Source: Okeania sp.
GTDB lineage: Bacteria; Cyanobacteriota; Cyanobacteriia; Cyanobacteriales; Microcoleaceae
DNA: 28,545 nucleotides
Direction: 5' to 3'
NCBI RefSeq assembly: GCF_035285525.1
Contig: NZ_JAYKGW010000034.1
Span: forward strand, 1 to 28,545
Shown here: piece by piece, positions 13,565-28,365 of the stretch
How the letters are laid out: each line of letters opens with the position of its first letter
How positions within the stretch are numbered: position 1 is the first letter of the stretch
Made by a program: the position numbers and the translations under genes
The notes under the pieces: generated by a model
Told to the model about the DNA's origin: nothing
The model's database searches: none
Seen by the model: only the letters and a program-made list of their open reading frames with translations

Positions 13565-15313
13565 TTAAATATTAACTGCCGATACTTGTTCATCAAAAGG
13601 AATTTTAGGAAAGTTCGGCAAATCTACTGCTGCTGATAAGTTTTGTTTTTCTGGTACTTCAGGTACAATTTCTTCTTCAAAAAATTCAGGCTCAAATACA
13701 GGTGAATCCCAAGTTGGTAAATGTAGCTTATTACCTACTAATGTTGTCTCTTCGACATCTTGCTCCACTTCCTCTACCATTTCAGAAGACTCATCTGCAT
13801 TTATTTCAGGATTTATATCTTTTTCTAGTATAGGTTGATACTCACAAACATTCCACTTTCCTGTAGAGATGTTCCATGATATACGCTCTTGTTTAATCCC
13901 TTTATTTGATTCCTCAGACAAATTCTCTACTTTTTTAGATTCTTCCATAACCTTATTTTCGACCAATTTTTCCCTTTCTTTTTGTTGACTTTTTCCTTTA
14001 GGTAAATCATTTTCTATAACTAAATACTCTTCTGCTTCTGTATACTGTAAAGTAGTATCTTGTGGCGATACTTTTTCTGCTAATTCATAATCAGGAACTT
14101 CACCTATTCTACTAAATAAAGGTAGACTAGGATTTAATATAGTCTCACTAACCTCAGTAAAAAATTCATACTCAGAAGTATTTTCTGGTGATGATGATAC
14201 TTCTTGTGGTTTAGTCAAACCTTGAGGTAAATCTAATTTATTTTCCCAATTAATATTAGTAGAATTCGTTTCTTTTTTGTCAAAAATAGATTCTTCTACT
14301 TGTTTATTTTTTATCTTTGGAGACCAAGGTTTAACTGGTTCAGAATTGATCAGAGGTATTTTTTTTGTGTTAGTCTGAAGGAAAGAATTTTCTTGCTTAA
14401 AAGTTTCAGATTTTGAGCTTAATTCAGATGTTTGAAATGTAGATTTTTCTTCTTCTAAAAGTTCAGATTTTGAACTTAATTCAGATGTTTGAACTGGATT
14501 GTTTACAGCTTTTTCAATTGTTTGATTTACCCTATCTATCTTTTCTGGAATTTCCAGATTTCTTGCCAAAGCAGCTTTGAACTGTAAAGTTTGTTGTTGC
14601 TGTCGATATAGTCTGTTTCGCAACTCTCGGCAACTATTTTCTAACTGTTTAAGATGATAACTTTGTTGATTGTAAGATTGTTTAGTTAAAGCACATTCTC
14701 TTTCCATTTGTGCCTGTTGTTGTTGACTATTTTGCCACTTATTTGTTAAAGACTCAACTAAAACCTCTTGACGCTGAATAATTTTATTACATAACTCTAA
14801 CTTGTAAAATAAACGAGTTACCTGTTGTTGAGTTGCTGCTAGTTCTTTAGTTCTTTCTTCTACCAACTTTTCTTGATTTTCTAGAGTTTTTTGACATTCT
14901 TCTAAAGAGGTTTCTAATTCTGTAACTCGGTTTACCAGTTCGCGGTTACATTCATGCAAAGCTTCCATAAGACTGGGAGCTTCTAGTTCTTCAGTGGAGT
15001 CTTTTTTCAAAACTGATTTAACCCCTACAACTTCCTGAGACTTTCTTTGAGGTTGATTTTGATTAGGTAATTTTAAATCTTTCACTTCTGATGAAGTTGT
15101 TTTTGATACTGGAATTGAATCTACACTCATAGCATTAGGAAAATTAACGGTCTCCCACTCATCGTTCTCTAGAGATGTGCGTTTTTCTGGAGCTATATTT
15201 TCTTCAATTTTGTCCAGTTGATAAGTGTAGTCCAGTTTTTGGTGATTTACTGGATTATTTGTTTCTGGGAAGTTCTGGTTTCCAGGAAGTTCAGCTTCTG
15301 GCATGGCTTTCAC
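13565..15313 (-). CDS. Large (582 aa) coiled-coil-rich hypothetical protein with an acidic low-complexity C-terminal half
   Basis: A long heptad-like Q/E/L-rich segment (LMEALHECNRELVNRVTELETSLEECQKTLENQEKLVEERTKELAATQQQV...RELRNRLYRQQQQTLQFKAALA). An internal ~20-aa duplication QTSELSSKSELLEEEKSTF / QTSELSSKSETFKQENSFL is visible as a ~60-bp DNA repeat at about 14395-14500. Confidence 0.7.
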   Translation of the reverse strand: MKAMPEAELPGNQNFPETNNPVNHQKLDYTYQLDKIEENIAPEKRTSLENDEWETVNFPNAMSVDSIPVSKTTSSEVKDLKLPNQNQPQRKSQEVVGVKSVLKKDSTEELEAPSLMEALHECNRELVNRVTELETSLEECQKTLENQEKLVEERTKELAATQQQVTRLFYKLELCNKIIQRQEVLVESLTNKWQNSQQQQAQMERECALTKQSYNQQSYHLKQLENSCRELRNRLYRQQQQTLQFKAALARNLEIPEKIDRVNQTIEKAVNNPVQTSELSSKSELLEEEKSTFQTSELSSKSETFKQENSFLQTNTKKIPLINSEPVKPWSPKIKNKQVEESIFDKKETNSTNINWENKLDLPQGLTKPQEVSSSPENTSEYEFFTEVSETILNPSLPLFSRIGEVPDYELAEKVSPQDTTLQYTEAEEYLVIENDLPKGKSQQKEREKLVENKVMEESKKVENLSEESNKGIKQERISWNISTGKWNVCEYQPILEKDINPEINADESSEMVEEVEQDVEETTLVGNKLHLPTWDSPVFEPEFFEEEIVPEVPEKQNLSAAVDLPNFPKIPFDEQVSAVNI

Positions 15314-15831: not shown

Positions 15832-17718
15832 ATGCAAAATACCTTTTCCGGAACCAAAATATTATTACTAATCTTTTATATTTTCCCAGTATTATTACTT
15901 CTCTGGTTTCTAGGTAATTTTAGTGTCAATGTTCCCTATTGGGATCAATGGAGATTAACCTCTATATTTGAGCGAGTTGCTGAAGGGAATGCTACCTTTT
16001 TTGACTTTTTTACAGTACACGGACATCACAGAATATTAATACCTAAATTAATTATTACTGCTTTAGCTTTTGCGACTAAATGGAATACTCAAGCGGAAAT
16101 AATTTGTAGTGTTATTTTTGTCATCATCACATTTTTTACTATCTACAAAATAGCCGAAATTCAATTTAAAAGTCAAAACCAAAATATTCTACATATAGCA
16201 AATATTTTAAGTTGTCTATTTTTATTTTCTTTAGTGCAACATCAGAACTGGTTATGGGGATTTACCATATTTTGGTTTCTGACAAACTTATGTTTAATAG
16301 TGGCAGTATATTTTATTTACGCTTTAGAGAATTTATCAGCAAAAACTAGAATATTTATAGCAGCAATATTTTGTTTAATTGGAAGTTTTACTCTAATCCA
16401 AGGATTACTTTCTTGGCTAGTTTTAATTCCGTTAATATTATCTATAGAAGGGAAAGTAAAACAAAAAATTAGTAGGCTAAGTATCTGGATTTTGCTATTT
16501 ATAATTTCATGTATTGTCTACGCAATTAACTTTAATCCAATTCGAGAACCTAAACCATTTTTATTTACAGAAAAACCTTTTTTGATTATAAATTACTTTT
16601 TAGCAGTTCTCGGTTTACCTTTAGTGAGACTTCCCATTCTGGCAATTTTAACCGGATTAATATTATTGTCTGGTTTCCTATTTTTTACATATTACTTTCT
16701 CAGGAAAATTTTGTTTCAAAAAGAAAGTCAAGAATTAGGAAGAAAAAGTTATGGAGCAGAAACAATGAGTAGGCAATTTAGAGGTAAAATAATTTCTATT
16801 CCAGAAACTTTAGATGCACTTTTATTAACAAATTTAGACTTTTCTTCAAAGGCAACTATTCCTTGGTTAACAATAGGTACATTTTCTCTAATTTCTGCTG
16901 TATCTATTTCTGTAGGTAGAGCAGAATATGGAATTGAAAATGCTATGATTTCTTCCCGATATACAACTACGTCAATATTATTAATTATTTCTCTAATTTA
17001 TCTTCTGGCTTTGTTTGTACAAGAGCAACAAAAACAAAAATATTTATCAATATATAAAATTTTAGCTGCCCTAATGACAGGAATTATAATGATTAATTCA
17101 GTATCTGTTGTGCGGAATATAAAATTAAGTTTTCCCTACATGGAAAGTCGGAAAGAATGTCTAGAAATCATTAACTATTTAGCAGATTCAGAATTTATCA
17201 AAACATCTCCAGATAGTTGTTTGGTATTAATGAATGGCAAAACTTGGTTGGTCAGACAAGGTGCAGAAATTATGGCAAAATTAGGATGGCGAGAATTTCC
17301 TCAAAATCTGGAATTTATCCAACAACCAAAACAAAATTATGGTTATTTAGATAATCCTCAAACAAGTGCAAAACCTCTAATTATTAAAGGTGATGAAAGT
17401 CTAAGTTTGGGAGGTTGGGCAATTAGACCAGATAGAAAAAAACAACCTAATTTAGTCTTGTTTTCTTCTGGTGAGAATGAATATTTTTTTGCTAATGCTA
17501 TTGTTAATTTAGAGAGTAATGATATTGCTACAATTATGAAGTCGAAAATTTATAGTAGAGCCAGATGGAAAGTAAAATTTTTAGCCAAATCTTTACCTGT
17601 GGGAGAAACTGTTATTAAGGCTTGGGTTTATAATTCTAACAAACAAGAATTTGTCAAATTAAATGATGAATTAAAACTTAGAGTAGAAGGGAGTTCAGAA
17701 GATAATAATAACTTCTAA
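15832..17718 (+). CDS. Polytopic membrane protein (about 12 or more TM segments) with a C-terminal soluble domain; putative GT-C-type glycosyltransferase, paralogue of 22717-24507
   Basis: Strongly hydrophobic N-terminal ~450 aa. An acidic/aromatic motif follows TM1 (VPYWDQW). It shares blocks with the second membrane protein: HHRILIPKLIITAL / EHFVLIPAIIYAL, QHQNWLWG / AAHNWMRG, YGIENAMISSRYTT / FGIEQAIASRYAT. The function is inferred, not recognised. Confidence 0.72.
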   Translation: MQNTFSGTKILLLIFYIFPVLLLLWFLGNFSVNVPYWDQWRLTSIFERVAEGNATFFDFFTVHGHHRILIPKLIITALAFATKWNTQAEIICSVIFVIITFFTIYKIAEIQFKSQNQNILHIANILSCLFLFSLVQHQNWLWGFTIFWFLTNLCLIVAVYFIYALENLSAKTRIFIAAIFCLIGSFTLIQGLLSWLVLIPLILSIEGKVKQKISRLSIWILLFIISCIVYAINFNPIREPKPFLFTEKPFLIINYFLAVLGLPLVRLPILAILTGLILLSGFLFFTYYFLRKILFQKESQELGRKSYGAETMSRQFRGKIISIPETLDALLLTNLDFSSKATIPWLTIGTFSLISAVSISVGRAEYGIENAMISSRYTTTSILLIISLIYLLALFVQEQQKQKYLSIYKILAALMTGIIMINSVSVVRNIKLSFPYMESRKECLEIINYLADSEFIKTSPDSCLVLMNGKTWLVRQGAEIMAKLGWREFPQNLEFIQQPKQNYGYLDNPQTSAKPLIIKGDESLSLGGWAIRPDRKKQPNLVLFSSGENEYFFANAIVNLESNDIATIMKSKIYSRARWKVKFLAKSLPVGETVIKAWVYNSNKQEFVKLNDELKLRVEGSSEDNNNF

Positions 17719-17752
17719 GATAGCCATGAAATAAATTATTCAACACCATCCC

Positions 17753-18470
17753 ACCATGAAATAAATTTGATAGCTCATAGCTGAACTCCCTTAACAGGGA
17801 CTGAAAATATCTAGTCCTTTGAAGAGGACTTAAGCTTTTAACGAAGGATTTTAATCCCTGGTATTATTAGAGAATTTTACAGGAGAATCCTCTTCATCAG
17901 TCATTTGTTCTAGATAAGAATTTACAGTTCCTTTTGAATGATGTTGTTTTTGATTATCGACATAAGCGATCGCTAGTTCTAATTGTTTTTGTCCCAAAGA
18001 AAAAACCCATATCCTCTTTGTCAAGCAAATTTATTTTCCTTCTGAGATAGAACATTATTTAGATAATGAGAACTACTACCTTTAATCTTTTTTACAAAAT
18101 CAGAAATAGCTAAAGTAGGTGGGATTGAAACTATTAAATCAATATGATTTTCTACACCATTAATAGCATGAATAATATAATTAAGAGCATCAGCTTTGCC
18201 AATAATATAATGATAAAGTTGAGGTTCAATATTTTGTTTGATCAGAGGTGGTCTTTCTTTAGTTGACCAAACAAAATGATAAAAAAGTCGCCATAATGCT
18301 ATTCTAATTTTTATCTTTTAAATATACAAATTTCAGGTGAAAATTGATATACTGCCCATAAATTTATTTCATGGCTAATAGCTTAAGTCCTCTTGAGAGG
18401 ACTAAGTATTTTTAGTCCCTTTTCAGGGACTTGAGCTTTAAGCCTGGGATTTTAATCCCAGCCAGTATAT
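17753..18470 (-). mobile_element. Decayed IS200/IS605-type (tnpA-only, ~0.7 kb) element with hairpin-rich ends
   Basis: A Y1-transposase pseudogene is flanked by copies of a two-hairpin module: left about 17785-17862 (...tagtcctttgaagaggacttaagcttttaacgaaggattttaatcc) and right about 18383-18460 (...tagtcccttttcagggacttgagctttaagcctgggattttaatccc). A short inverted repeat is also present: ccatgaaataaattt (17753-17767) / aaatttatttcatgg (18360-18374). Exact ends are uncertain. Confidence 0.55.
17851..18302 (-). pseudogene. IS200/IS605-family Y1 (HUH) transposase / RAYT-like gene, inactivated
   Basis: My minus-strand translation gives (ATA)ALWRLFYHFVWSTKERPPLIKQNIEPQLYHYIIGKADALNYIIHAINGVENHIDLIVSIPPTLAISDFVKKIKGSSSHYLNNVLSQKENKFA*QRGYG, then a frameshift in a T-run, then FSLGQKQLELAIAYVDNQKQHHSKGTVNSYLEQMTDEEDSPVKFSNNTRD*. 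Lesions are ATA in place of ATG, TGA where W is expected (FAWQRGYG), one frameshift, and HUH degraded to H-I-D. Confidence 0.8.
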
Positions 18471-18531
18471 CCTCATAGAATGATTTTAATCTCAGACAGT
18501 ATATCCTAAAAAAATTAATTTTAATCAAAAT

Positions 18532-19398
18532 ATGATGTCAAAAAATCATTGCCCTTTATGTCAGGCAGATAAATTTAACTACTACAAAACAGGGGATGAA
18601 TATTTATTAGCAAAATGTTCTGAATGTGGTATGGTATGGGATAATAATCCACCAGTAAATCCTCTTGCTATCTATCAAGAAGATTATTATAATAATGATT
18701 TCCCTAAAGGAGGATATTCTAATTATTTCCAAGGGATGAAAATTAATAGTCAGACTTTTCGTAAGCGTTTATTAAAAGCTGAGAAAAAACTTTCTGGAAA
18801 AGGTTTATTATTAGATGTTGGTTGTGCTTTAGGTGATTGTTTGCAGCAAGCAAAAGATTTAGGATGGGATAATCCTCAAGGTTTAGAAGTTTCTGAATAT
18901 GCGGTAAATTTTGCTAAAGGTAGAGGTTTATCTGTATATCAAGGAGATTTATTTAATCATAATTTTGCACCTAATTCTTTTGACTTGATTATGTTGCAAG
19001 ATATGATTGAACATACGACAAATCCTATGGCTCAGTTAACAGCAGCTTATCAACTTTTGAAACCTGGTGGATGGGTTTTTATTACTACTCCAAATGTGGG
19101 AGGATTTTGGCATAGATTATTGGGGTCTTTATGGTATCATTATAAGCCAACAGAACACTTGACATATTTTTCCCTAGATACGATAAAATTTGCTTTGGAA
19201 AAAAGTGGATTTTCTGATGTAGAATCAAAGCCAACCAATAATTTAATGAGTCTGGGATATATTTTGAATAGATTGAGGTATTATCAGGAGATTTTATTCT
19301 CTTTTTTACTTTCAATTTCTCAATTTATCAACCTAGATAAATTAGTCTTTAATTTATGGATAGGAGAATTAGAAGCTTGGGGGAGAAAAGACGGTTAA
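18532..19398 (+). CDS. Class I SAM-dependent methyltransferase with N-terminal CxxC...CxxC zinc ribbon
   Basis: HCPLCQ...CSECG zinc-ribbon pair. SAM motif I LLDVGCALGDCL, with a downstream acidic/loop motif (LIMLQDMIEH, LKPGGWVFITTPN). Confidence 0.87.
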   Translation: MMSKNHCPLCQADKFNYYKTGDEYLLAKCSECGMVWDNNPPVNPLAIYQEDYYNNDFPKGGYSNYFQGMKINSQTFRKRLLKAEKKLSGKGLLLDVGCALGDCLQQAKDLGWDNPQGLEVSEYAVNFAKGRGLSVYQGDLFNHNFAPNSFDLIMLQDMIEHTTNPMAQLTAAYQLLKPGGWVFITTPNVGGFWHRLLGSLWYHYKPTEHLTYFSLDTIKFALEKSGFSDVESKPTNNLMSLGYILNRLRYYQEILFSFLLSISQFINLDKLVFNLWIGELEAWGRKDG

Positions 19399-19415
19399 CA
19401 GCTTCTTATAGTTAA

Positions 19416-19458
19416 CAGTTATCAGTTATCAGTTATCAGCTTCTTCCTTCTTCCTTCT
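19416..19458. repeat. STRR-type tandem heptamers (CAGTTAT x3.4) followed by a CTTCTTC/CTTCCTT pyrimidine repeat, just after the methyltransferase stop
   Basis: cagttatcagttatcagttatcag cttcttccttcttccttc was read directly. Confidence 0.9.
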
Positions 19459-19478
19459 AACAACTGAGGTCAAAAAAA

Positions 19479-20024
19479 ATGAATGTAATTGTAACAAAAA
19501 TTCCTGAAGTATTGTTGATAGAGCCAAAAGTTTTCGGTGACGAACGTGGCTTTTTTATGGAGAGTTTTAATCAACGTAATTTTTCCGAAAAAACAGGAGT
19601 AAATCTGGAATTTGTACAAGATAATCACTCCCGTTCTCGCAAAGGAGTATTGCGAGGTTTACATTATCAAATTCAACAAGTTCAAGGTAAATTATTACGA
19701 GTAGTTGTAGGAGAAATATTTGATGTTGCTGTCGATATTAGAAAAAGTTCTCCTAGTTTTGGTAAGTGGGTAGGTTATCTTTTAAGTGCAGAAAATAAAC
19801 GACAACTTTGGGTTCCTCCTGGTTTTGCTCATGGTTTTTTAGTAGTGTCTGAAACTGCTGATGTTTTGTATAAGACTACTGATTATTATGCACCTCAATA
19901 TGAGCGTTCAATTATTTGGAATGATTCAGAAATTGGCATTGATTGGCCTTTGGATGGCATTGAAGTGAAATTATCTCAAAAAGATGAAGCTGGTACAACT
20001 TTGAGAGATGCTGATTTGTTTTAA
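19479..20024 (+). CDS. rfbC: dTDP-4-dehydrorhamnose 3,5-epimerase (RmlC/RfbC)
   Basis: Full-length cupin epimerase with canonical blocks: FGDERGFF.ESF, RGLHYQ, GKLLRVV.GEIFDVAVDIR..SP.FGKW, LWVPPGFAHGF, YKTTDYY.P..ER.I.WND. Confidence 0.95.
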   Translation: MNVIVTKIPEVLLIEPKVFGDERGFFMESFNQRNFSEKTGVNLEFVQDNHSRSRKGVLRGLHYQIQQVQGKLLRVVVGEIFDVAVDIRKSSPSFGKWVGYLLSAENKRQLWVPPGFAHGFLVVSETADVLYKTTDYYAPQYERSIIWNDSEIGIDWPLDGIEVKLSQKDEAGTTLRDADLF

Positions 20025-20145
20025 TAATATAATTCAAGATTCAGGAGTCATAAGTCAGAATATTATTTGCAAAAATTACTTACTATAATGATTATTTGGA
20101 GTTTAATTTTTCGTCATAACTTAATATTAAGACAGAATGAAAGTT

Positions 20146-20412
20146 GGTAAATTATCAAAGGGTAAAATTATCAAACCTCGAAAATTGAGAATTATGAATG
20201 TTGGGATAAACTTTCTAACTAAAGTAATTTTTGAGAGAGGGTAAAATTTTGCCTATATGCTGACTTAAAGACAGAAGGAAAATTGCCAAATTATCAAACT
20301 GTAAAATTATCAAAACTCAGAATTAATAATTTCTAAAATTTCGGCAAACTTTCTAGCTGAATATTTTCCAAAGAGGGTAAATTTTTGCCTATTTGTTGAG
20401 CTAAAGCGAGAA
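20146..20412. repeat. Imperfect tandem duplication (unit about 130-135 bp: 20146-20276 and 20285-20412) inside the rfbC-rfbD spacer, carrying four AAATTATCAAA boxes
   Basis: My alignment: ggtaaattatcaaagggtaaaattatcaaacctcgaaaattgagaatt...aaactttctaactaaagtaatttttgagagagggtaaaattttgcctatatgctgacttaaagacag versus gccaaattatcaaactgtaaaattatcaaaactcagaattaataatt...aaactttctagctgaatattttccaaagagggtaaatttttgcctatttgttgagctaaagcgag. Confidence 0.85.
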
Positions 20413-20527
20413 TTAAGAAATCTGGTTCTCTGAGCATTTTACAGCTAAAGTTATTTTTGATTTCATAACTTTATGAAATCAATAAAATCGAAAAATTAAA
20501 TTTAAACTAACTAACCAAAAATCACAA

Positions 20528-21409
20528 ATGAAAATATTATTAACAGGTATCAACGGACAACTAGGAAACCAACTACAACCCCTGCTCACAAAAGCAGGAG
20601 AAGTAACCGCAGTAGGACGAGAAAATTTAGACTTAGCCAACTCCAATGCCATCTCTCAAATTATAGAGCAAATTAAACCAGAACTAATTATTAATGCCGC
20701 GGCTTATACAGCAGTTGACAAGTCTGAAAATGAACCAGAATTAGCTAATTCTGTTAATAGTATCGCTCCTGGAATTATAGCAAAAGAGGCTAAAAAGTTA
20801 GGAGCAACTTTAATCCACATTTCTACCGACTATGTTTTTGATGGTACTCAAAGCACTCCCTACACAGAAACCGACCCCACAAACCCCCTCGGAACTTATG
20901 GTAAGTCTAAGTTGGCTGGAGAAGAAGCTATTCGAGAAACAGAGGCTAATCATATTATTATTAGAACAGCTTGGGTTTATGGAGTTTATGGAAAAGGTAA
21001 TTTTGTCAAAACTATGTTGCGAGTAGGTAAAGATAGAGAAGAATTAAGAGTAGTTTACGATCAGGTTGGTTGCCCAACTTGGACGGGAGATTTAGCAGAG
21101 GCGATCGCTCAATTTATTCCTCGTCTTAATGAGGAAACTTATGGAACTTATCATTATACAAATAGTGGAGCTATTAGTTGGTACGATTTTGCTATGGCTA
21201 TTTTTGAAGAAGCAAAACAACTGGGTTTTCCTTTGGAGGTAAAAAGGGTGGTTCCTATTACGACTGCGGAATATCCAACTCCAGCAAAACGCCCTGCTTT
21301 TTCAGTTTTAAATGGTGGGAAAATTGCCAAAGTTTTGGGAAATCATTCTCCTTATTGGAAAGATAGTTTGAGGCAAATGTTAAGACAGTTAGTTGCTGTA
21401 AATAATTAA
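20528..21409 (+). CDS. rfbD: dTDP-4-dehydrorhamnose reductase (RmlD/RfbD)
   Basis: LLTGINGQLG Rossmann motif, NAAAYTAVDK.E, STDYVFDG, YGKSKLAGE (YxxxK), RTAWVYG, and a C-terminal RP.FSVL block. Confidence 0.93.
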   Translation: MKILLTGINGQLGNQLQPLLTKAGEVTAVGRENLDLANSNAISQIIEQIKPELIINAAAYTAVDKSENEPELANSVNSIAPGIIAKEAKKLGATLIHISTDYVFDGTQSTPYTETDPTNPLGTYGKSKLAGEEAIRETEANHIIIRTAWVYGVYGKGNFVKTMLRVGKDREELRVVYDQVGCPTWTGDLAEAIAQFIPRLNEETYGTYHYTNSGAISWYDFAMAIFEEAKQLGFPLEVKRVVPITTAEYPTPAKRPAFSVLNGGKIAKVLGNHSPYWKDSLRQMLRQLVAVNN

Positions 21410-21753
21410 CAATTAGCTTTTTTTATTTTTGGGGTTTTGAGAAATTCTTTGATTGATTAAGTCATTCTTTACCTTCTCTTGAGTATAAAAATATTTTCTT
21501 GAGATTGATAGATACAAAATTTGACTTCAACAGACTATATCTATAGTCACCCAAAACTATGGCGCTATAGTTTTTATGTCTGAAAATCTATAGGTAGATT
21601 CAGCAATTAAAAGTTAATAATTACTTCTCCTTAAAAGTGAGAGAATCTATCAATAGAAAAGAAATATTATTTCCCTGTTTTCAATTCCCTCACGGTTTTA
21701 ACTAAAGGTAATTATTTATTAATTATCCATTATCAATTATCCATTATTAATTA

Positions 21754-22512
21754 ATGAATATTACTCCTTCTCCTTGGGTGAAAATATTTCAACCCATTTC
21801 TCAACCGACCCTGCGTTTATTCTGTTTTCACCCTTCCGCTTCTGGTGCTTCCTTGTTTCGCACCTGGGAAAAATACTTGCCTTCTAATATAGAGGTATGT
21901 GCTATACAACTACCAGGTAGAGAAACTAGAATTAAAGAACCTTTAATTACAAAATGGGATAAACTTTTACTTCCATTAATTCAAGCATTAAAACCCCTAA
22001 TTATAGAATATCCCTTTGTATTTTTCGGGCATAGTCTTGGTGTCGCCGTCTGTTTTGAAGTAGCTTGTCAATTACGAAAGGCAAAACTTCCAACTCCTAA
22101 ATGTCTATTTGTTTCAGGTCGTTATGCTCCTCACATTCTTGCTGATAACCCAGTTCATCAAAAGTCAGAACAAGTTTTAATGTCTAAATTTCGTGACTAC
22201 GGTGGTACTCCAGAAGCGGTGTTACAAAACCGAGACCTAATGGAATTATTTTTACCTATTTTACGAGCAGACCTGACTCTGCATGAAACATATATTGAAT
22301 CAGGTGAACCTCCTTTTGAGTTTCCCATAGTTGCTTTTAGGGGTAAAAATGATGGTGAAGTTAACTATCAAGAATTATTTGAATGGAATCATTATACTCT
22401 CGCTTCTTTTGACTTACATGAATTTCCAGGAGGTCATATGTTTTTCCAAAAGGAGCCAAAAGTTTTAATTGAGACAATTTTAAAGTTTGTTAGTTTAGGG
22501 AGTAGGGAGTAG
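21754..22512 (+). CDS. Type II thioesterase (alpha/beta hydrolase, GrsT/TycF-like family)
   Basis: LFCFHPSASGASLFRTW, QLPGRE.R, the nucleophile elbow FFGHSLG, LPILRADL, and the C-terminal FPGGHMFF histidine block. This is the typical layout of editing thioesterases that accompany PKS/NRPS systems. Confidence 0.84.
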   Translation: MNITPSPWVKIFQPISQPTLRLFCFHPSASGASLFRTWEKYLPSNIEVCAIQLPGRETRIKEPLITKWDKLLLPLIQALKPLIIEYPFVFFGHSLGVAVCFEVACQLRKAKLPTPKCLFVSGRYAPHILADNPVHQKSEQVLMSKFRDYGGTPEAVLQNRDLMELFLPILRADLTLHETYIESGEPPFEFPIVAFRGKNDGEVNYQELFEWNHYTLASFDLHEFPGGHMFFQKEPKVLIETILKFVSLGSRE

Positions 22513-22611
22513 CAAGAAGTAAAGAAGGAAAAAGTAAAGAACTGAAGAATAATTTAGTTATATAGGTGTGAAGGAATAGATGTTGAAAAAAAAGGAAAAA
22601 ATGATGGAGAT

Positions 22612-22716
22612 AGCTATTTCAAATTAATTCATACATCTGTGGCAAAATCGGTGTCTGACTCTGCCATTGCTATTTCAAATTAATTCATACATCTGTAGCA
22701 AAATTCATGTCTTGCT
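22612..22716 (+). repeat. Direct repeat (about 45-49 bp, period 56 bp) immediately upstream of the second membrane-protein gene
   Basis: agctatttcaaattaattcatacatctgtggcaaaatcggtgtctgac (22612-) versus tgctatttcaaattaattcatacatctgtagcaaaattcatgtcttgc (22668-). Confidence 0.9.
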
Positions 22717-24507
22717 TTGCGATTTATGTTAATCAAAAAAAAGTCAAAGATTACTTTTCTAATTATCACTACCATAGCAATTTTACTCCCAGCTTTCTAT
22801 ATACTTTTTATGATATCGAAAGCAGGAGAACTACTAAATTTTGATTATTGGTGGATGATTAAAAATATCTATTCTATAGATGGTTTTTCCAATAATATTT
22901 TTGACTGGATGTTTCGCGCCAACGAACATTTTGTCTTAATTCCTGCCATAATTTATGCCCTAAATATTATTCTTACCAAAGGTTCCAATATTGGGTTGTG
23001 TCTAGCGACATTTTTCCTAGCTTTTATTCAAGGAATTTTCTTAATTATATTAGTACCCAATACTCTCAAAAAATATCCGCCGATACTTTTATTATTAATT
23101 TTATTCATATCAATTTTTAACTTTACTCCCGCTGCTGCTCATAACTGGATGCGCGGATATAGTGGAGTACATTGGGTAATTGCTAATTTATTTGTTATTG
23201 CCTCAATATTTTGTGTTAAAAAATTACTAGAATCTCAACAAAATAGATTTGTTATTGCCAGTATAATATTCGGAATTTTAGGATGTATTAGTTATAGTAC
23301 CGCTCTAGGAGTTTTCCCGATATTATGTGCAGTTGCTATTCTCTATAAGTTGCCAAAAAAACTTACTATCTCTTATGTATTTGTTTCTGTTTTAGTAATA
23401 GGAACTTATTTCTTTACTTACACAACACCATCTCATCATCCGTCGTTATCTAAACTAAATTTTATTAATATAATTGCCTATGTTCCTGTTTATCTAGGAG
23501 CAATTTTTACTCATAATATTCCCATCGCTTCCGCAATAGGTTGGATAGGATTAATTTTAACAGGAATATTTTTTATTTATTGGTTATTTCTATCTTATCC
23601 GCAAAATTGGTTTCCTTGGTTATCCATAATAATTTATACTTTTGGAACTGCTTTAATGGCAGCAGTTAGTCGTTCTGGTTTTGGAATAGAACAAGCGATC
23701 GCTTCTCGTTATGCAACTCTACCTTCTCTATTTTGGTTAAGTCTAATTATCCTAATTTTTCTATGGTTAGAAAAACAGCAACTTCCCCCCAGAAAACAAT
23801 GGTATTTTGTTATGCCATTGGTGACAGTTTTAACAGTTTTAACTATATCAATGTATCAAGTAGGAACGGCAACTTTTAGAGAAATTGCTCATCGGGCAAC
23901 TTTTCAACCTTTAGTAGCATTATCGTTACAATTAGGAATTTCCGATCCGACTTTAATTAAGGAAAAAGTTGGCAACCGTCCTGCTGCTTTTTTAGGATTA
24001 GTTGATGCTTTAAAAGCTGATGGTTTAGTACCTTTTCATAGAGATATAAAACAGAATAATTTTTGTGCTAGTTTGGGTGAGAAAATTGACTCTAATTTAT
24101 TAAGTACTAAACTGCCAGAAAATTTTCAGGGATATTTTGATAATGTGACTAAATTTTCTCCGACTACAGCTAGAGTGAATGGATGGGTGAGTCAAGTTAA
24201 AGGTCAAAATTCAAAGGTCAAAAGTGAAGATAATTTTCCAATTAAATGTATTGTGATTTTGAATCAAGAAAATGTAGTTAAAGGTTTTGGGATGTTAGGT
24301 TTTCCTCGTGCTGATGTAGCAGAACTTTTAGGAGCAGAATATGAATTTTCAGGTTGGAAAGGATATATTGAAGTCAATGGTCAAAGGTCAAAAATCAACA
24401 GTGAAGAAAATATTTCAATCTCAGATAATGAAGTTTTAACAGCTTATGTGAAGTTGAAAAATCGCCAAAGTTGGATAGCTTTAACTAATCAATATAATTT
24501 TGATTAA
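22717..24507 (+). CDS. Polytopic membrane protein with C-terminal soluble domain; putative GT-C-type glycosyltransferase, paralogue of 15832-17718
   Basis: Multiple hydrophobic segments. The motif FDYWW follows TM1, and blocks are shared with the first paralogue (see that entry). The ORF-track start at 22717 is TTG. The ATG at 22726 (MLIKKKSK) is the more likely start. Confidence 0.72.
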   Translation: MRFMLIKKKSKITFLIITTIAILLPAFYILFMISKAGELLNFDYWWMIKNIYSIDGFSNNIFDWMFRANEHFVLIPAIIYALNIILTKGSNIGLCLATFFLAFIQGIFLIILVPNTLKKYPPILLLLILFISIFNFTPAAAHNWMRGYSGVHWVIANLFVIASIFCVKKLLESQQNRFVIASIIFGILGCISYSTALGVFPILCAVAILYKLPKKLTISYVFVSVLVIGTYFFTYTTPSHHPSLSKLNFINIIAYVPVYLGAIFTHNIPIASAIGWIGLILTGIFFIYWLFLSYPQNWFPWLSIIIYTFGTALMAAVSRSGFGIEQAIASRYATLPSLFWLSLIILIFLWLEKQQLPPRKQWYFVMPLVTVLTVLTISMYQVGTATFREIAHRATFQPLVALSLQLGISDPTLIKEKVGNRPAAFLGLVDALKADGLVPFHRDIKQNNFCASLGEKIDSNLLSTKLPENFQGYFDNVTKFSPTTARVNGWVSQVKGQNSKVKSEDNFPIKCIVILNQENVVKGFGMLGFPRADVAELLGAEYEFSGWKGYIEVNGQRSKINSEENISISDNEVLTAYVKLKNRQSWIALTNQYNFD

Positions 24508-24567
24508 TTTGATATATCTCAGAAAAAAGTCATTTATTCAAAAGTAAAAACAGGAAATTTTCAGAGA

Positions 24568-24781
24568 TTATGTGAAATTGAAAAATCGCCAAAATTAGAT
24601 AGTTATAACAGATAAAGGGGTGTATCTCAATATTTATTTGTAAAAATCTTTTTTCCTATTCCCTCCATACCTATTCTCAGTTAAGTGTTCCCTAAAAGTG
24701 ATGAATCTTAAGCTAGTTTATGTTAAATTAAAAAATTGTCAAGATTAGATAGCTTTAGCAAATCAACATAGTTTTAAATAA
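24568..24781 (+). repeat. Two decayed copies of the last ~40-64 nt of the preceding gene (24568-24604 and 24718-24781)
   Basis: Gene tail ttatgtgaagttgaaaaatcgccaaagttggatagctttaactaatcaatataattttgattaa versus ttatgtgaaattgaaaaatcgccaaaattagatagtt and ttatgttaaattaaaaaattgtcaagattagatagctttagcaaatcaacatagttttaaataa. Confidence 0.85.
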
Positions 24782-24942
24782 AACAGTGGGAACATCTTGC
24801 TCCCTTGCATTATGATTATATTTGTTAATGAAACAGTGGGAAACTATTCCTCCCTTACTAGATGTTGTTTGCTACTATTTGATACTGCTTTTTATTCTTT
24901 ACTATTCCCTGTTCCCAGCTAAGTGTTTCCTATAATTTAACC

Positions 24943-25905
24943 TTGAATAATAAATACCTCAGTTTTGTAATTCCAGTTTATAACGAAGAAGCCACAATCA
25001 AACCCTTGTTTGAGAGAATTTTAGATGTAATTAATTTAATAGAAATTGATAGTTATGAAATAATTTTTGTAGATGATGGAAGTAGCGATCGCTCTTGGAT
25101 AGAAATTAATGAATTAATCAAAAAATATCCCCATAAGATTAAAGGAATTAAACTAAGAAGAAACTTTGGAAAATCTTCTGCTTTATCTGCTGGATTTAAA
25201 AAGTCTAGAGGAAATATTATCTTTACTTTAGACGCAGACTTACAAGACGACCCTACCGAAATACCTAAATTTTTAGAGAAGTTAGAGTCAGGACATGATT
25301 TAGTTTGTGGATGGCGAAAAAATCGTAATGACCCTCTTTCTAAAACATTACCATCGAAATTATTTAATAGAGTTACATCCATTTTAACGGAGGTAAAATT
25401 ACATGACTTTAACTGTGGATTCAAAGCTTATAAAAAAGAAGTATTAGACTGTATAAAAGTTTATGGAGAATTACATCGTTATATTCCCGTATTAGCTCAT
25501 AGTTTAGGATTTAAAATTACTGAAGTACCTGTACAACATCATCGCCGAAAACAGGGAAAATCTAAATATGGTTTAGAACGTTATACCCGTGGATTTATTG
25601 ATTTATTAACAGTTTTAGCCACTACTCATTATTTACATAAACCAGGTCATTTGTTTGGAAGTTTAGGATTATTTTTTGGTGTCATAGGAATGACTTCTTT
25701 GGGTTATTTAACTATACTTTGGTTTATGGAAGTTCGACCTATAGGTACTCGACCTTTATTTTTGTTTGGAATTTTGTGTATTATTCTCTCTGTACAGTTA
25801 ATATCTTTGGGAATTTTGGCCGAATTAATTACTAAAAATGTAGATAATAATTATGTGGATAAACAGATTTGTGAAGTGGTAGAAATTCCCGAAAAAAATG
25901 GATAA
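24943..25905 (+). CDS. Polyisoprenyl-phosphate glycosyltransferase, GT2 family (GtrB/ArnC/DPM1-like), TTG start
   Basis: FVIPVYNEE, FVDDGSSD, LDADLQDDP (DxD region), NRNDPL..., FNCGFKAYKKEV, then two C-terminal TM helices (LFGSLGLFFGVIGMTSLGYLTILWF; LFLFGILCIILSVQLISLGILAELI). This is the GtrB-type architecture. No in-frame ATG lies near the conserved N-terminus. Confidence 0.9.
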   Translation: MNNKYLSFVIPVYNEEATIKPLFERILDVINLIEIDSYEIIFVDDGSSDRSWIEINELIKKYPHKIKGIKLRRNFGKSSALSAGFKKSRGNIIFTLDADLQDDPTEIPKFLEKLESGHDLVCGWRKNRNDPLSKTLPSKLFNRVTSILTEVKLHDFNCGFKAYKKEVLDCIKVYGELHRYIPVLAHSLGFKITEVPVQHHRRKQGKSKYGLERYTRGFIDLLTVLATTHYLHKPGHLFGSLGLFFGVIGMTSLGYLTILWFMEVRPIGTRPLFLFGILCIILSVQLISLGILAELITKNVDNNYVDKQICEVVEIPEKNG

Positions 25906-26039
25906 TTAGTTGGCCTCAAAACTATATCTCTGTGTTATCATAAAAATTAACAAAAGTCAAGCGTACAGACCATATTTTATCAGTGCGATTTTTCAGGAAC
26001 CGTGCATCCTGGTCTCGTCTTGATTGCCCTTAAAAAAAC

Positions 26040-26100
26040 GCAGTATTTTTAGTCCTCAGAAGAGGACTTGAAGCTCTGAGCCAAAAAATTTAATCTTTGG
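26040..26100. repeat. Solo copy of the IS200-end hairpin module (REP/PATE-like)
   Basis: cgcagtatttttagtcctcagaagaggacttgaagctctgagcc...aatttaatc aligns with 18405-18460 (ctaagtatttttagtcccttttcagggacttgagctttaagcc...gattttaatc). It sits between the convergent GT2 and HlyD genes. Confidence 0.7.
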
Positions 26101-28365
26101 CTAATTAACATTAGTCAAACTTTGGAACTTACCAGTAAACCTATTAAAGAATAACTCTAAAACCGTCCGTTTACCAACATTAATATTAGAGTTAATTGCC
26201 ATACCATTCTGCAAACCAATTTCCAGGTCATTCTCGTGACCCAAAACAAAAGTTTGCCTTTCTAATTCAATTTTAGTTTCAAAAGAAAAATAAGCTCTTC
26301 CTTCTTCTTGACTTGGAGGAATAGCATCATTACTAATAAAAACAACCTCCCCTGTTGCAGTACCAAATTCATTAGCAGGTAAAGCTTCAACTTGTACTTC
26401 TACAGGTACACAGTCTACATCTTTTAAGCCTAACTTTTCCCGATTTTCTCTCAGTTCCGGACAAACACATTTCTTGCCCGGTTCACATTGAATAACCTCC
26501 CCACCAGCCAACTCTTGTTCGTGATAAAGTTCCAATTTTTTGCGTTTATCATTCAAAGCCTTTAACACCAAAGCAACATCTTTATTCTGAATATAAACGA
26601 CAGCTTCTAAACCTTCATCATCATCCAAAACTGTTAGTAAAGGTTGAGTTTGTTGCGCTTCAAAAGAAGCATCCTCACATCTTTGTGGTTGAATATCTCC
26701 TGGTTGCAAAACTTCTTTAATGACATATTGACAAATAGGGTCTGTATTTATATCTAGAGAAGACTCTTCTTTAGTTGTCGGTTGTAAATCAAAAATTACC
26801 CCAGAAACTGGGGATTTTAAAACTTGATTATCACGGGCTTCTTCTAACTTTTCTATCTGAGCATTAACCTCAGTTAGTCGCTTATTATTGTCTAGTTGTA
26901 AACGAGTAAATTGAGAATCTATTCTAGCAATTTCTCTACCTTCATTTTCGGCAGTTCTAGCATAAAGTTCTCTTGCCCAAGCATCTCTAGTATTTTTTAA
27001 TTGTTCCTTAGTTCTCCTAATAGATACAATTAAACGTTGTTGTTCTAACTTAGCTCTTTGAACTTCTGCTTCACGGGCTTTAACTTCTCCTGCCCTGGCA
27101 TTAATCTCAGCTTGCCGAGAATTAATTTCTCCTTTTCTAGAATTAATTTCTCCTTCTAAAGTATTAATATTTGCTAATTGAGAATTAACCTCTCCTTGTC
27201 TAGCATTAATATCAGCCAACCGAGAATTAATTTCTCCTTTTCTAGTATTAATTTCTCCTTTTCTAGAATTAATTTCTCCTAATCTGGTATTAATTTCTCC
27301 TGCCCTAGACTGTATCTGGTCTTGCTGTCTTAACATCTCACTCTCACCCCGAAACACTTCTTGTTCCTGACGTTTTTTTTGCAATTCAGCGATCGCTCCT
27401 TCTTCTACCAAAGGAGATATTTGCTCCAAAATTCCTTGGTTAGAATTTAACACCTTACCCGACTTTTCTAACTGCCCTTTAGCTAATTCTAATTGTTCCT
27501 TAGAATACTTTAATTGTTCTTGAGAATATTCTAATTGCGCCCTAGTATTATTCAATTGTTCCCTAGTATTATTAAGTTGTTCCCTAGCAAATTTTAGTTG
27601 TTCTTGTGCAGTTTTTAATTGGTCATTAGCATAAACTCGCTGTTGCTCAGTATTTCTTAATTGTTGTCTAGAAAACTCTAATTGTTGTCTAGAATATTGC
27701 AATTGGTCTTGGGCTACTCTTAACTGTTCTTTAGCAGCTTCCTCCTGTTCTTTTGCTTGTTCAAGTTGTTTTTCTAGCTCTCTGATTTGTAATTCTACAG
27801 TACCCACACGAGAATTATATTCAGCTTTATAATTGACATATAATCCTTGTAAACTTGGGTCAATATTGACAAAACCACCCCTGTTTAAATAAAGTTCATT
27901 AATTAGAGCGCGATAGGCTTGATTTTCTGATATTCTTGTTTGCCTTTCTTGAGCAAGTTTCTGTAAATCTGGTGGTAAATCTGTGGGAACTTTGCCATCC
28001 AATACTTCTTGGTAAAACTTGTTTTCTCTTTTAATAGTTTCTCTTAATTTTATGGCAGAACCTAAGTCTGCACTAGGAACAGTAGGATTAAAAGTTAATA
28101 ATGGTTGATTCTTTTCCACGCGATCGCCACTTTCTACATGAAGTCTAACCACATTCCCACTGGTAGGAGCTTGGACATCTATAGAACCATCCTTCAGTTC
28201 TAATTTACCTATTGCGGGTATAGCTTGGTCTATCTGAGCAAAATAAGCCCAAATTACTGCTGAACTGGTCATTAACATAATCATCCAGAGAAATAGTCTA
28301 GATAGTATGGCTGGTTTCTCTAGAATTACTGGTTGTTCGCTTAGTGATAGAGATTGGTCTTGCAT
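26101..28365 (-). CDS. HlyD-family membrane-fusion/periplasmic adaptor protein with a greatly extended repeat-built coiled-coil and a Cys-containing insert
   Basis: N-terminal TM LFLWMIMLMTSSAVIWAYF. First lipoyl half VQAPTSGNVVRLHVESGDRVEKNQPLLTF and second half LKSPVSGVIFDL. C-terminal beta-barrel/MP-like region. About 350 aa of coiled coil lie in between. Six Cys are found in the C-terminal third. Confidence 0.88.
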   Translation of the reverse strand: MQDQSLSLSEQPVILEKPAILSRLFLWMIMLMTSSAVIWAYFAQIDQAIPAIGKLELKDGSIDVQAPTSGNVVRLHVESGDRVEKNQPLLTFNPTVPSADLGSAIKLRETIKRENKFYQEVLDGKVPTDLPPDLQKLAQERQTRISENQAYRALINELYLNRGGFVNIDPSLQGLYVNYKAEYNSRVGTVELQIRELEKQLEQAKEQEEAAKEQLRVAQDQLQYSRQQLEFSRQQLRNTEQQRVYANDQLKTAQEQLKFAREQLNNTREQLNNTRAQLEYSQEQLKYSKEQLELAKGQLEKSGKVLNSNQGILEQISPLVEEGAIAELQKKRQEQEVFRGESEMLRQQDQIQSRAGEINTRLGEINSRKGEINTRKGEINSRLADINARQGEVNSQLANINTLEGEINSRKGEINSRQAEINARAGEVKAREAEVQRAKLEQQRLIVSIRRTKEQLKNTRDAWARELYARTAENEGREIARIDSQFTRLQLDNNKRLTEVNAQIEKLEEARDNQVLKSPVSGVIFDLQPTTKEESSLDINTDPICQYVIKEVLQPGDIQPQRCEDASFEAQQTQPLLTVLDDDEGLEAVVYIQNKDVALVLKALNDKRKKLELYHEQELAGGEVIQCEPGKKCVCPELRENREKLGLKDVDCVPVEVQVEALPANEFGTATGEVVFISNDAIPPSQEEGRAYFSFETKIELERQTFVLGHENDLEIGLQNGMAINSNINVGKRTVLELFFNRFTGKFQSLTNVN
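27058..27309 (-). repeat. 12 tandem 21-bp units encoding heptads (SRAGEIN TRLGEIN SRKGEIN TRKGEIN SRLADIN ARQGEVN SQLANIN TLEGEIN SRKGEIN SRQAEIN ARAGEVK AREAEVQ)
   Basis: Plus-strand units of the form attaatttctccttttctaga, several nearly identical, in frame with the HlyD CDS. Confidence 0.93.
27457..27729 (-). repeat. 13 tandem 21-bp units encoding heptads (EQLRVAQ DQLQYSR QQLEFSR QQLRNTE QQRVYAN DQLKTAQ EQLKFAR EQLNNTR EQLNNTR AQLEYSQ EQLKYSK EQLELAK GQLEKSG)
   Basis: The period-21 register was read in both the DNA and the protein, in frame with the HlyD CDS. Confidence 0.93.

Follow-up and report, generated by a model that had tools for sequence, protein, structure and literature searches.

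Transmembrane glycosylation systems that pair a GtrB/ArnC-type GT-A glycosyltransferase (GT) with predicted GT-C polytopic membrane proteins include GtrA-GtrB-GtrC of Shigella and Salmonella phages, CsbB-GtcA-YfhO, GacI/J-GacK-GacL, and CsdAB/CD/EF of L. lactis. The pairing of a polyprenyl-phosphate-sugar synthase of family GT2 with a polytopic protein is a hallmark of GT-A/GT-C systems. The locus considered here, a 10-kb block of seven genes in a contig of the cyanobacterium Okeania sp. (order/family Oscillatoriales/Microcoleaceae), resembles these systems: it encodes a GtrB/ArnC-type GT2 and two GT-C-like polytopic proteins, MP1 and MP2, together with the rhamnose enzymes RmlC and RmlD. The whole 28,545-bp contig was analysed and is called the window below. 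The evidence supports the locus as a genuine, conserved and undescribed envelope-glycan modification cluster, which probably encodes a multi-component (three-component-type) transmembrane glycosylation system.

In three- and multi-component systems more than one GT-C protein may share a system, and the flippase is often encoded elsewhere in the genome (PMC8035078). Three further systems are close in kind to the Okeania locus. The Pgf operon of S. mutans, pgfS-pgfM1-pgfE-pgfM2, resembles it in gene content, with a GtrB-like GT2, two polytopic proteins and a sugar-nucleotide enzyme (PMC5856776). ArnC and ArnT form the aminoarabinose system of lipid A. GT136, a GT-C family founded only recently, acts in the periplasm, where it decorates O-polysaccharides that depend on an ABC transporter; in the pentofuranose system represented by ORF12 of Citrobacter youngae O1, the donor comes from a polyprenyl phosphoribose synthase and the flippase is of the MATE family (PMC11127046).

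A gene set conserved in Microcoleaceae

An initial annotation, made from the sequence alone, described seven co-directional genes, all of which are found as open reading frames (ORFs) where it placed them; its reference to Nostocales names the wrong taxon for an Okeania host. The genes are as follows.

15832-17718, + strand: MP1, polytopic membrane protein of 628 aa (from the ORF), predicted to be GT-C-like with a C-terminal periplasmic beta-sandwich
18532-19398, + strand: class I S-adenosylmethionine-dependent methyltransferase with an N-terminal four-Cys zinc ribbon (Methyltransf_23 at 1.5e-22)
19479-20024, + strand: RmlC, dTDP-4-dehydrorhamnose 3,5-epimerase (TIGR01221, 276 bits against a cutoff of 156)
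20528-21409, + strand: RmlD, dTDP-4-dehydrorhamnose reductase (TIGR01214, 360 bits against a cutoff of 224)
21754-22512, + strand: type II thioesterase (TE), a lineage-specific accessory (PF00975 at 1.5e-44)
22717-24507, + strand: MP2, paralogue of MP1 (hhalign), 596 aa, with the ATG at 22726 as its likely true start
24943-25905, + strand: GT2, GtrB/ArnC-type polyprenyl-phosphate glycosyltransferase with a C-terminal transmembrane (TM) hairpin (PF00535 at 1e-35)

These gene identities are established; the ORF list for 15832-25905 holds no further membrane ORF of at least 50 aa.

A scan of species-representative genomes gave 227 loci with MP1 relatives, 80 of which were mapped with 10-kb flanks using the proteins of the window as queries. 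The common gene order is PpiC-type rotamase, HlyB-type ATP-binding cassette (ABC) protein, HlyD, MP1, a variable portion, RmlC, RmlD, an optional TE, MP2 and GT2, and it is seen in Okeania, Trichodesmium, Dapis, Microcoleus, Tychonema, Kamptonema and Lyngbya. HlyD and the ABC protein lie upstream of MP1 in 57 of the 64 loci with enough flank; RmlC and RmlD lie within 10 kb in 37 of 59 loci and, wherever detected, between MP1 and the MP2-GT2 pair. This order is established, and it recurs in dozens of genomes, which rules out the chance juxtaposition that the initial annotation would have conceded had no related genome proved syntenic. Identity across the loci falls to ~40-45% for MP1 and ~55% for MP2, with GT2 at ~70% and RmlC at ~75%.

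Two versions of the variable portion are found. In Okeania, Trichodesmium, Dapis and related metagenome-assembled genomes (MAGs) the order is rotamase, ABC protein, HlyD, MP1, methyltransferase, RmlC, RmlD, TE (0-2 copies), MP2 and GT2. In Microcoleus, Tychonema, Kamptonema, Lyngbya and O. nigro-viridis PCC 7112, the rotamase, ABC protein, HlyD and MP1 are followed by a second glycosyltransferase, GT2'; the Microcoleus-type middle consists of this 253-aa DPM1-like GT2', a 354-aa epimerase/dehydratase of the short-chain dehydrogenase/reductase (SDR) family and an unrelated methyltransferase on the opposite strand, and then leads into RmlC, RmlD, MP2 and GT2. Each MP paralogue of Microcoleus adjoins its own GT2 of the polyprenyl-phosphate-sugar-synthase type, and Okeania keeps only one. 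One Microcoleus locus in which RmlC and RmlD seemed to be gone was examined and proved to carry a ~6-kb defence/toxin-antitoxin island between its two halves. This island, in Microcoleus sp. A006_D1 (L089 13821-21753 and L090 1-7682), splits the MP1 half from the RmlC-MP2 half; it contains a ribbon-helix-helix protein, an NNH5/NA-iREase1 nuclease-like gene, a 1104-aa protein of unknown type and a DUF433/DUF5615 pair.

Stigonema, Waterburya, Calothrix and Aetokthonos carry more distant MP1-like genes (37-38% identity) without the type I secretion system (T1SS) genes, and in these four genera the MP1-like gene keeps an adjacent DPM1-like GT2' and SDR epimerase. The surrounding clusters hold Wzt, whose ABC ATPase is joined to an O-antigen-binding Wzt_C domain, multi-domain, polymerase-like methyltransferase-GT2-GT2-GT1 proteins, further GT2 and GT4 genes, and GDP-mannose dehydratase. 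Such surroundings are to be expected where an ABC-transporter-dependent polysaccharide is decorated after its polymerisation, and they match published accounts of O-antigens in enterobacteria and of wall polymers in Gram-positive bacteria (PMC8035078, PMC11127046).

Giant glycosyltransferases of 1300-1560 aa that combine methyltransferase, GT2 and GT1 domains occur near the cluster at L004 1-3035, L089 1-3820 and L078 4622-9103. Those of L004 and L089 also have a GT41 domain and lie directly upstream of rotamase-ABC-HlyD, and that of L078, from Calothrix, adjoins the MP1-like gene; the acceptor polymer may be the product of these proteins. PCC 7112, Microcoleus and Okeania SIO2C2 have, downstream of GT2, a DUF6798/GT87-like polytopic protein of 610-654 aa, a second, Pfam-recognised GT-C-like family (regions L002 12976-17052, L088 18356-20320 and L090 13053-17117), followed in PCC 7112 and Microcoleus by a ~740-aa unannotated protein and a GDSL-lipase-like gene. 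None of these three genes is present in the Okeania window.

The paired membrane proteins and their GT2 partner

MP1 and MP2 are real and old paralogues, as the initial annotation proposed. BLASTP finds only a 57-residue motif shared between them; aligned as families of orthologues, they match by hhalign at 97.7% probability (E 1.6e-12 over 464 columns), which establishes the paralogy. They belong to a large family: among 1.84 billion cluster representatives at 50% identity, a profile search detected 10,097 members at E <= 1e-3 and 2,553 at E <= 1e-30. Profile searches with both proteins matched no known family. Neither has a Pfam or NCBIfam match, 73 family members give no GT-C family even among weak Pfam matches at E <= 5, and 10 distant representatives give no GT-C match in Pfam or NCBIfam; the cluster members of these distant representatives are all named 'hypothetical'. 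The labels 'YfhO family' and 'RgtA/B/C/D-like', which databases attach to some members, could not be reproduced. Sequence searches of the Protein Data Bank (PDB) with three profiles (A1, A2 and the 123-sequence A5) returned only noise, and neither E. coli ArnT nor the neighbouring DUF6798/GT87 protein reached a probability of 1% when compared with the family profile by hhalign. MP1 and MP2 are accordingly not assigned to any established GT-C sequence family (YfhO, PMT/PMT_2, GT87, ArnT/GT83 or STT3).

By structure prediction the two proteins come nearest, among membrane proteins, to GT-C_A enzymes. The AlphaFold2 model of MP1 (pLDDT 86, pTM 0.87) has ~13 long helices spanning residues 7-445, short helices in the loop after TM1 and a beta-sandwich at residues 494-620; that of MP2 has the same layout but is weaker (pLDDT 63). 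Topology was read directly from the sequence (a strongly basic loop at residues 291-343, then three TM helices). The models show the layout of GT-C proteins, a polytopic domain of ~8-13 TM helices followed by an extracytoplasmic soluble domain. Among PDB entries, the full-length membrane matches of the MP1 model by Foldseek are ArnT (5f15) and STT3 (probability ~1, E ~1e-2, TM-score 0.31-0.39), with 5f15 the top match by TM-score (TMt 0.39). The top 11 matches of MP2 are STT3/PglB oligosaccharyltransferases (probability 0.85-1.0, E 1e-2 to 1.4e-1, TM-score 0.19-0.36), followed more weakly by Pmt4 (probability 0.47). The best membrane-protein matches of both models are all GT-C_A, most of them at probability 0.95-1.0, with E from ~1e-2 to 6e-1, none at or below 1e-3, and TM-scores under 0.4. 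A GT-C fold is therefore likely for MP1 and MP2 from these models but not proven; in the initial annotation's phrase 'two GT-C-like paralogues' the paralogy is firm and the best fold matches agree, and the GT-C part leans on weak matches.

The GT-C active-site pattern comprises an acidic residue in the first external loop and conserved basic residues. In a set of 132 family members with a median identity of 28% to MP1, D38 of MP1 (D43 of MP2), in the first extracytoplasmic loop after TM1, is conserved in 98%, and it is nearly invariant in the 123-sequence alignment A5. R363 is conserved in 100% of the 132 members and R376 and Y377 in 97-98%; in the C-terminal domain G528 reaches 100% and W579 98%, with W529 also among the most conserved residues. 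A conserved first-loop 'NEH', whose E is kept in 87% of members, is found in MP2 and in most of the family. The MP1 clade has 'HGHHR' in its place (MP1 residues 64-67, window 16021-16032), and this swap of the second acidic residue for histidines may reflect a different metal or donor requirement. The Okeania MP1 also carries a ~40-residue insertion of low pLDDT in the basic cytoplasmic loop (residues ~296-333, window 16717-16830), which is missing from the 580-aa orthologues of Trichodesmium and Dapis.

GT2 is a full-length enzyme of the ArnC/GtrB type, as the initial annotation had it. Its PF00535 domain covers residues 7-171, its 'LDADLQ' motif aligns with the E. coli ArnC counterpart and supplies the DxD-type motif of a GT-A domain, and a two-helix membrane anchor forms the C-terminus. 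Identity to E. coli ArnC is 34% over 296 aa (residues 4-298, E 3e-55), TM hairpin included. The PDB entries ArnC 9hwj (3e-46) and Synechocystis GtrB sll0501 5eke (1.5e-35) are both matched across the hydrophobic C-terminus. The full-length ArnC match and the matches to solved ArnC and GtrB establish GT2 as a genuine polyprenyl-phosphate glycosyltransferase. It is not ArnC proper: its 185 bits on the ArnC model (1.3e-54) fall below the equivalog cutoff of 529, as do its 155 bits on the PgfS model (3e-45) below a cutoff of 500, and the rest of the Arn pathway was not found; BLASTP of 88 loci yielded neither ArnE nor ArnF, and the window lacks genes resembling ArnA, ArnB or ArnD.

Compared with the described systems, the locus shares parts with each. 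Distant MP1 relatives sit in O-polysaccharide-like clusters, a feature shared with the three-component systems; unlike those systems, MP1 and MP2 match no YfhO, PMT_2, GT87 or GtrC-type family in Pfam or NCBIfam, the Okeania locus has no flippase of the GtrA, Wzx, MATE or ArnEF type (by its ORF list, and by BLASTP for Wzx and ArnEF), and the cluster is tied to rmlC/rmlD and an HlyB-type T1SS. The Pgf operon differs in having a UDP-4-epimerase as its sugar-nucleotide enzyme in place of RmlC/RmlD, in the PgfS score of GT2, and in that the context of the Okeania cluster favours a polysaccharide acceptor. The Arn system is approached by GT2 through ArnC and by the MP1 model through ArnT 5f15, and is set apart by the score of GT2 on the ArnC model, the lack of ArnA/B/D/E/F homologues and a family profile unrelated to ArnT. 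ORF12 of GT136, as described, shares the overall plan of the MP1 model, in which a small helical domain comes after TM1 of the TM bundle and the C-terminal domain is rich in beta structure, and differs in its donor enzyme and flippase, since Okeania has a GtrB-type GT2 (PMC11127046).

Rhamnose enzymes, thioesterase and the secretion neighbour

The dTDP-L-rhamnose pathway is represented by its RmlC and RmlD enzymes, as first noted; both pass their equivalog cutoffs, and the window has no rmlA or rmlB. Syntenic orthologues reach up to 63% identity to E. coli RfbC for RmlC and 44-48% to E. coli RfbD for RmlD. With E. coli queries, 88 loci yielded no RmlB orthologue (the best match, at 26% identity, is an SDR epimerase), and RmlA-like nucleotidyltransferase ORFs at ~35% identity appeared in only 3 of the 88. 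Because of this the RmlC/RmlD-only arrangement is regarded as a stable feature of the cluster, in which the four RmlABCD enzymes do not occur together. In a Trichodesmium erythraeum-type contig (L001 13879-14990), gene calling splits rmlC into three fragments (68, 105 and 71 aa), and the gene appears disrupted or partly duplicated; rmlD, TE, MP1 and MP2 are intact there.

The methyltransferase and TE are lineage-specific. The former has CxxC...CxxC in its N-terminal sequence and only generic methyltransferases as PDB matches; outside the Okeania/Trichodesmium/Dapis clade and related MAGs it has no orthologue, and within them identity is 60-91%. TE has the GHSLG and GGH motifs in an alpha/beta-hydrolase domain, and its nearest solved structures are the editing thioesterases RedJ and RifR (~1e-37). 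Syntenic orthologues of at least 66% identity are confined to the Okeania/Trichodesmium/Dapis clade, at 0-2 copies per locus and sometimes adjoining a cyclase-family gene; TE is absent from the syntenic loci of Microcoleus, Tychonema and MAG82. The next homologues, at 53% identity or less, are type II thioesterases of the usual cyanobacterial kind, and the gene for one of them immediately follows a nonribosomal peptide synthetase (NRPS) gene. TE is therefore taken as a lineage-specific acquisition and was rejected as a core component. Acylation by way of TE, one element of the initial annotation, is unlikely, since the enzyme is a canonical carrier-protein-dependent type II thioesterase of restricted distribution; neither the window nor any syntenic locus contains a carrier-protein, polyketide synthase (PKS), NRPS or acyl-activating gene.

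The features around and between the seven genes are as follows.

12058-12813: WecG/TagA glycosyltransferase flank (profile match)
17773-18443, - strand: decayed IS200-like insertion (Y1 transposase), flanked by 68-nt inverted repeats
20119-20416, no strand: 138-bp unit repeated ~2 times between rmlC and rmlD (from the self-offset pattern in blastn against L039)
25906-26100: second breakpoint zone, between GT2 and HlyD
26101-28365, - strand: HlyD-family adaptor of 754 aa, inverted in this contig (TIGR01843 at 3.9e-34)

The giant HlyD adaptor that was first listed as a flank is present where described; it belongs to the conserved synteny with an HlyB-type ABC protein, a partnership that was missed. 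In other Okeania strains, where it is intact, the ABC protein has a cyclic-nucleotide-binding domain at its N-terminus, followed by a C39-type domain and the ABC exporter core. The HlyB type I secretion model gives it 721 bits (cutoff 725.55), and its best PDB match is HlyB (5.5e-21), with the bacteriocin transporter PCAT1 at 1.8e-4. The C39-like domain has Ala at the position of the PCAT1 catalytic Cys; this substitution and the HlyB match indicate a domain like that of RTX exporters, not a leader-peptide protease, and an exporter of GG-leader bacteriocins was rejected on the same two grounds. The combination of a cyclic-nucleotide (cNMP) domain with an HlyB-type core (L003 3467-6469; the orthologue would lie past the right end of the window) suggests, from sequence, cNMP-regulated type I secretion. 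No RTX-repeat substrate is consistently found near the T1SS genes across the loci.

HlyD in the window shares 81% identity with an HlyD that immediately precedes MP1 in another Okeania, yet it lies tail-to-tail downstream of GT2, the sole opposite-strand case among 81 loci. Homology with the DNA of other Okeania loci begins only ~40 bp before the MP1 start codon (breakpoint at window 15790). The unique orientation of HlyD together with this breakpoint indicates that the 10-kb block has been inverted relative to the exporter and has remained adjacent to it; because homology begins only ~40 bp upstream, MP1 may have lost its ancestral promoter region. A simple inversion that would also explain the upstream flank was rejected: Okeania SIO2C2 has pyruvate kinase downstream of GT2, and there is none upstream of MP1 here. 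HlyD, at 754 aa, is unusually long for its family. Its coiled-coil (residues ~250-430) contains runs of 7-residue 'GEINxRx'-like and 'EQLxxx' repeats, whose number varies by strain, with two 14-residue gaps relative to the Okeania L003 orthologue.

On the other side, the WecB/TagA-family gene named as a flank in the initial annotation does exist but has no counterpart in any comparable locus, and it was rejected as part of the cluster. Divergently upstream of MP1 (13565-15313, - strand) is a 582-aa acidic, Gln/Glu-rich coiled-coil protein with no family assignment and no counterpart in the other loci.

The spacers between the genes, first given as 80-500 bp, range from 80 to 813 bp, and the description of them as full of tandem duplications is only partly true: short heptamer arrays, one 34-bp repeat and ~2 copies of the 138-bp unit are present. 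In Okeania sp. KiyG1 the 138-bp unit has been amplified to a 1.9-kb tandem array of 14 copies with 88% matches (L039 16479-18410), and other Okeania strains also carry several copies. The widest spacer, between MP1 and the methyltransferase, contains the decayed insertion sequence (IS) that the initial annotation recognised. This is a frameshifted IS200-like tnpA (~17851-18330, - strand) whose repaired translation matches PF01797 at 1.1e-27; in this remnant the HUH motif is mutated ('HID'), and the reading frame carries one internal stop and one frameshift. Its 68-nt inverted repeats (17773-17840 and 18376-18443) are 82% complementary, and extra perfect inverted repeats of 15-17 nt also bracket it. 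IS200/IS605 elements normally lack terminal inverted repeats, so the remnant may sit inside a palindromic repeat element. The insertion is not in the Okeania locus L003 and is shared in part with L039; BLASTN of the region against plasmids gave no match. Promoter and terminator scans were uninformative, promoter-like sites being no commoner than chance.

Proposed function and its alternatives

In the transmembrane glycosylation system proposed here, GT2 would act on the cytoplasmic face, transferring sugar from a nucleotide sugar to polyprenyl phosphate, and an unlinked flippase would bring the lipid-linked sugar to the periplasmic face. MP1 and MP2, as putative GT-C-fold transferases, would then each add the sugar to an extracytoplasmic glycan, at a different position or acceptor; binding of the carbohydrate acceptor is probably the task of the Ig-like beta-sandwich at the C-terminus, in which Gly, Trp and Tyr residues are invariant. 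RmlC and RmlD would finish dTDP-L-rhamnose from an unlinked RmlA/RmlB supply, and the rhamnose would most likely enter the rhamnose-containing polymer that is being decorated. The methyltransferase plausibly O-methylates a sugar, and TE would be a lineage-specific passenger or accessory outside the core. What stands of the initial proposal of an undescribed envelope-glycan cluster is the conserved GT2/MP1/MP2/RmlC/RmlD set; acylation, the taxon and the WecG flank are not supported. No flippase was found, in agreement with that proposal: Wzx, ArnE and ArnF are absent from 88 loci by BLASTP, and no GtrA or MATE profile search was made. The missing flippase is not anomalous, since unlinked flippases are common (PMC8035078).

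Several points weigh against this proposal. The GT-C assignment depends on weak structural matches (Foldseek E ~1e-2, TM-score 0.3-0.39), the MP2 model has low confidence, and no sequence or profile link, even with the 123-sequence profile, connects MP1 or MP2 to any GT-C in Pfam, NCBIfam or the PDB. The window has no genes for a flippase, an initiating phosphoglycosyltransferase or the acceptor polymer. The conserved HlyB-type T1SS neighbour is not explained by this model, and the long spacers and IS remnant make a single operon uncertain.

In one alternative the acceptor is a protein, with MP1 and MP2 glycosylating Ser, Thr or Asn of an envelope or secreted protein (S-layer or oscillin-type, perhaps handled by the T1SS) in the manner of Pgf, PglB or PMT. 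The adjacency of the HlyB-type ABC protein and HlyD in 57 of 64 loci, which outlasts the inversion in the window, and the C39-like domain without its catalytic Cys both fit such a function; so do the top Foldseek matches of the two paralogues, which are protein-modifying GT-Cs (STT3, PglB and Pmt4), and a gene layout that mirrors pgfS-pgfM1-pgfE-pgfM2 (PMC5856776), with GT2 matching the PgfS model. Foldseek scores, however, cannot tell GT-C subfamilies apart, and the active sites of GT-Cs lie in the periplasm, which T1SS substrates normally bypass. Near the cluster no RTX-repeat substrate is encoded consistently, distant family members occur without a T1SS in Wzt-type polysaccharide clusters, and a C-terminal beta-sandwich with conserved aromatic residues suits a glycan acceptor, so that protein glycosylation is unlikely. 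Quite unlikely is a bolder form of the glycosylation reading, in which GT2 makes polyprenyl-phosphate-rhamnose from dTDP-L-rhamnose or a methylated form of that nucleotide sugar, and MP1 and MP2 found a new GT-C rhamnosyltransferase family, perhaps acting on a surface glycoconjugate exported in connection with the T1SS. It is compatible with GT2 being the only nucleotide-sugar-using glycosyltransferase of the cluster in Okeania and Trichodesmium, and with the constant place of RmlC and RmlD between MP1 and MP2-GT2 wherever they were detected; no description of undecaprenyl- or polyprenyl-phosphate-rhamnose was found in the literature searched.

That MP1 and MP2 are not glycosyltransferases at all, and serve with the rhamnose genes as a Wzy-like polymerase, WaaL-like ligase, acyltransferase or transporter, is very unlikely. 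The lack of a sequence-level tie to a known GT-C family leaves room for this, as do Foldseek E-values that never reach 1e-3, TM-scores under 0.4 and the presence of WaaL in the MP1 match list (probability 0.28). Yet both models independently rank GT-C_A first (probability 0.95-1.0), the first-loop Asp and invariant Arg fit the GT-C active-site pattern, and a GT2 stands beside MP2, as GT2' stands beside MP1-like genes in Microcoleus, Stigonema, Waterburya and Aetokthonos. It is highly improbable that the locus makes a rhamnose glycolipid or lipopeptide-like metabolite, with TE freeing an acyl chain, GTs adding (methyl)rhamnose and ABC/HlyD exporting the product in DevBCA style: TE is intact, kept across Okeania, Trichodesmium and Dapis and sometimes duplicated, and HlyD weakly matches the DevB family, but TE is missing from most syntenic loci and is a canonical editing type II enzyme, no locus has a carrier protein, PKS, NRPS or acyl-activating gene, and the ABC protein is HlyB-type, not DevA-type. 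Very little credence can likewise be given to functionally unrelated genes held together by shared ancestry alone. The strongly syntenic genomes are all Microcoleaceae, so conservation could partly be phylogenetic inertia, and spacers are long and accessory content varies; against this, the order has been kept while MP1 diverged to ~40% identity, it outlasts insertions and a block inversion, and the GT-C plus GT2 pairing recurs in unrelated cyanobacterial orders.

For the proposed glycosylation system, the mechanism class is already known from Gram-positive cell walls and enterobacterial O-antigens, and the locus extends it without adding a new principle. What is new is an unannotated GT-C-like family that is duplicated within the cluster, a fixed rmlC/rmlD pair, and the partnership in Microcoleaceae with an HlyB-type exporter that has a cNMP domain; the literature searched does not mention the locus tags of Trichodesmium or PCC 7112. 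If the reading is true, MP1 and MP2 would add to the GT-Cs a new sequence family of more than 10,000 representatives at 50% identity that lacks Pfam, NCBIfam and PDB coverage. That the cluster is stably linked both to rmlC/rmlD and to cNMP-domain HlyB-type secretion offers specific hypotheses on donor, acceptor and regulation. The cluster would also give genetic entry to periplasmic glycan decoration in the bloom- and mat-forming Trichodesmium, Okeania and Microcoleus, cyanobacteria whose sheaths, lipopolysaccharide and extracellular polysaccharides affect gliding, aggregation, interactions with phages and grazers, and carbon export.

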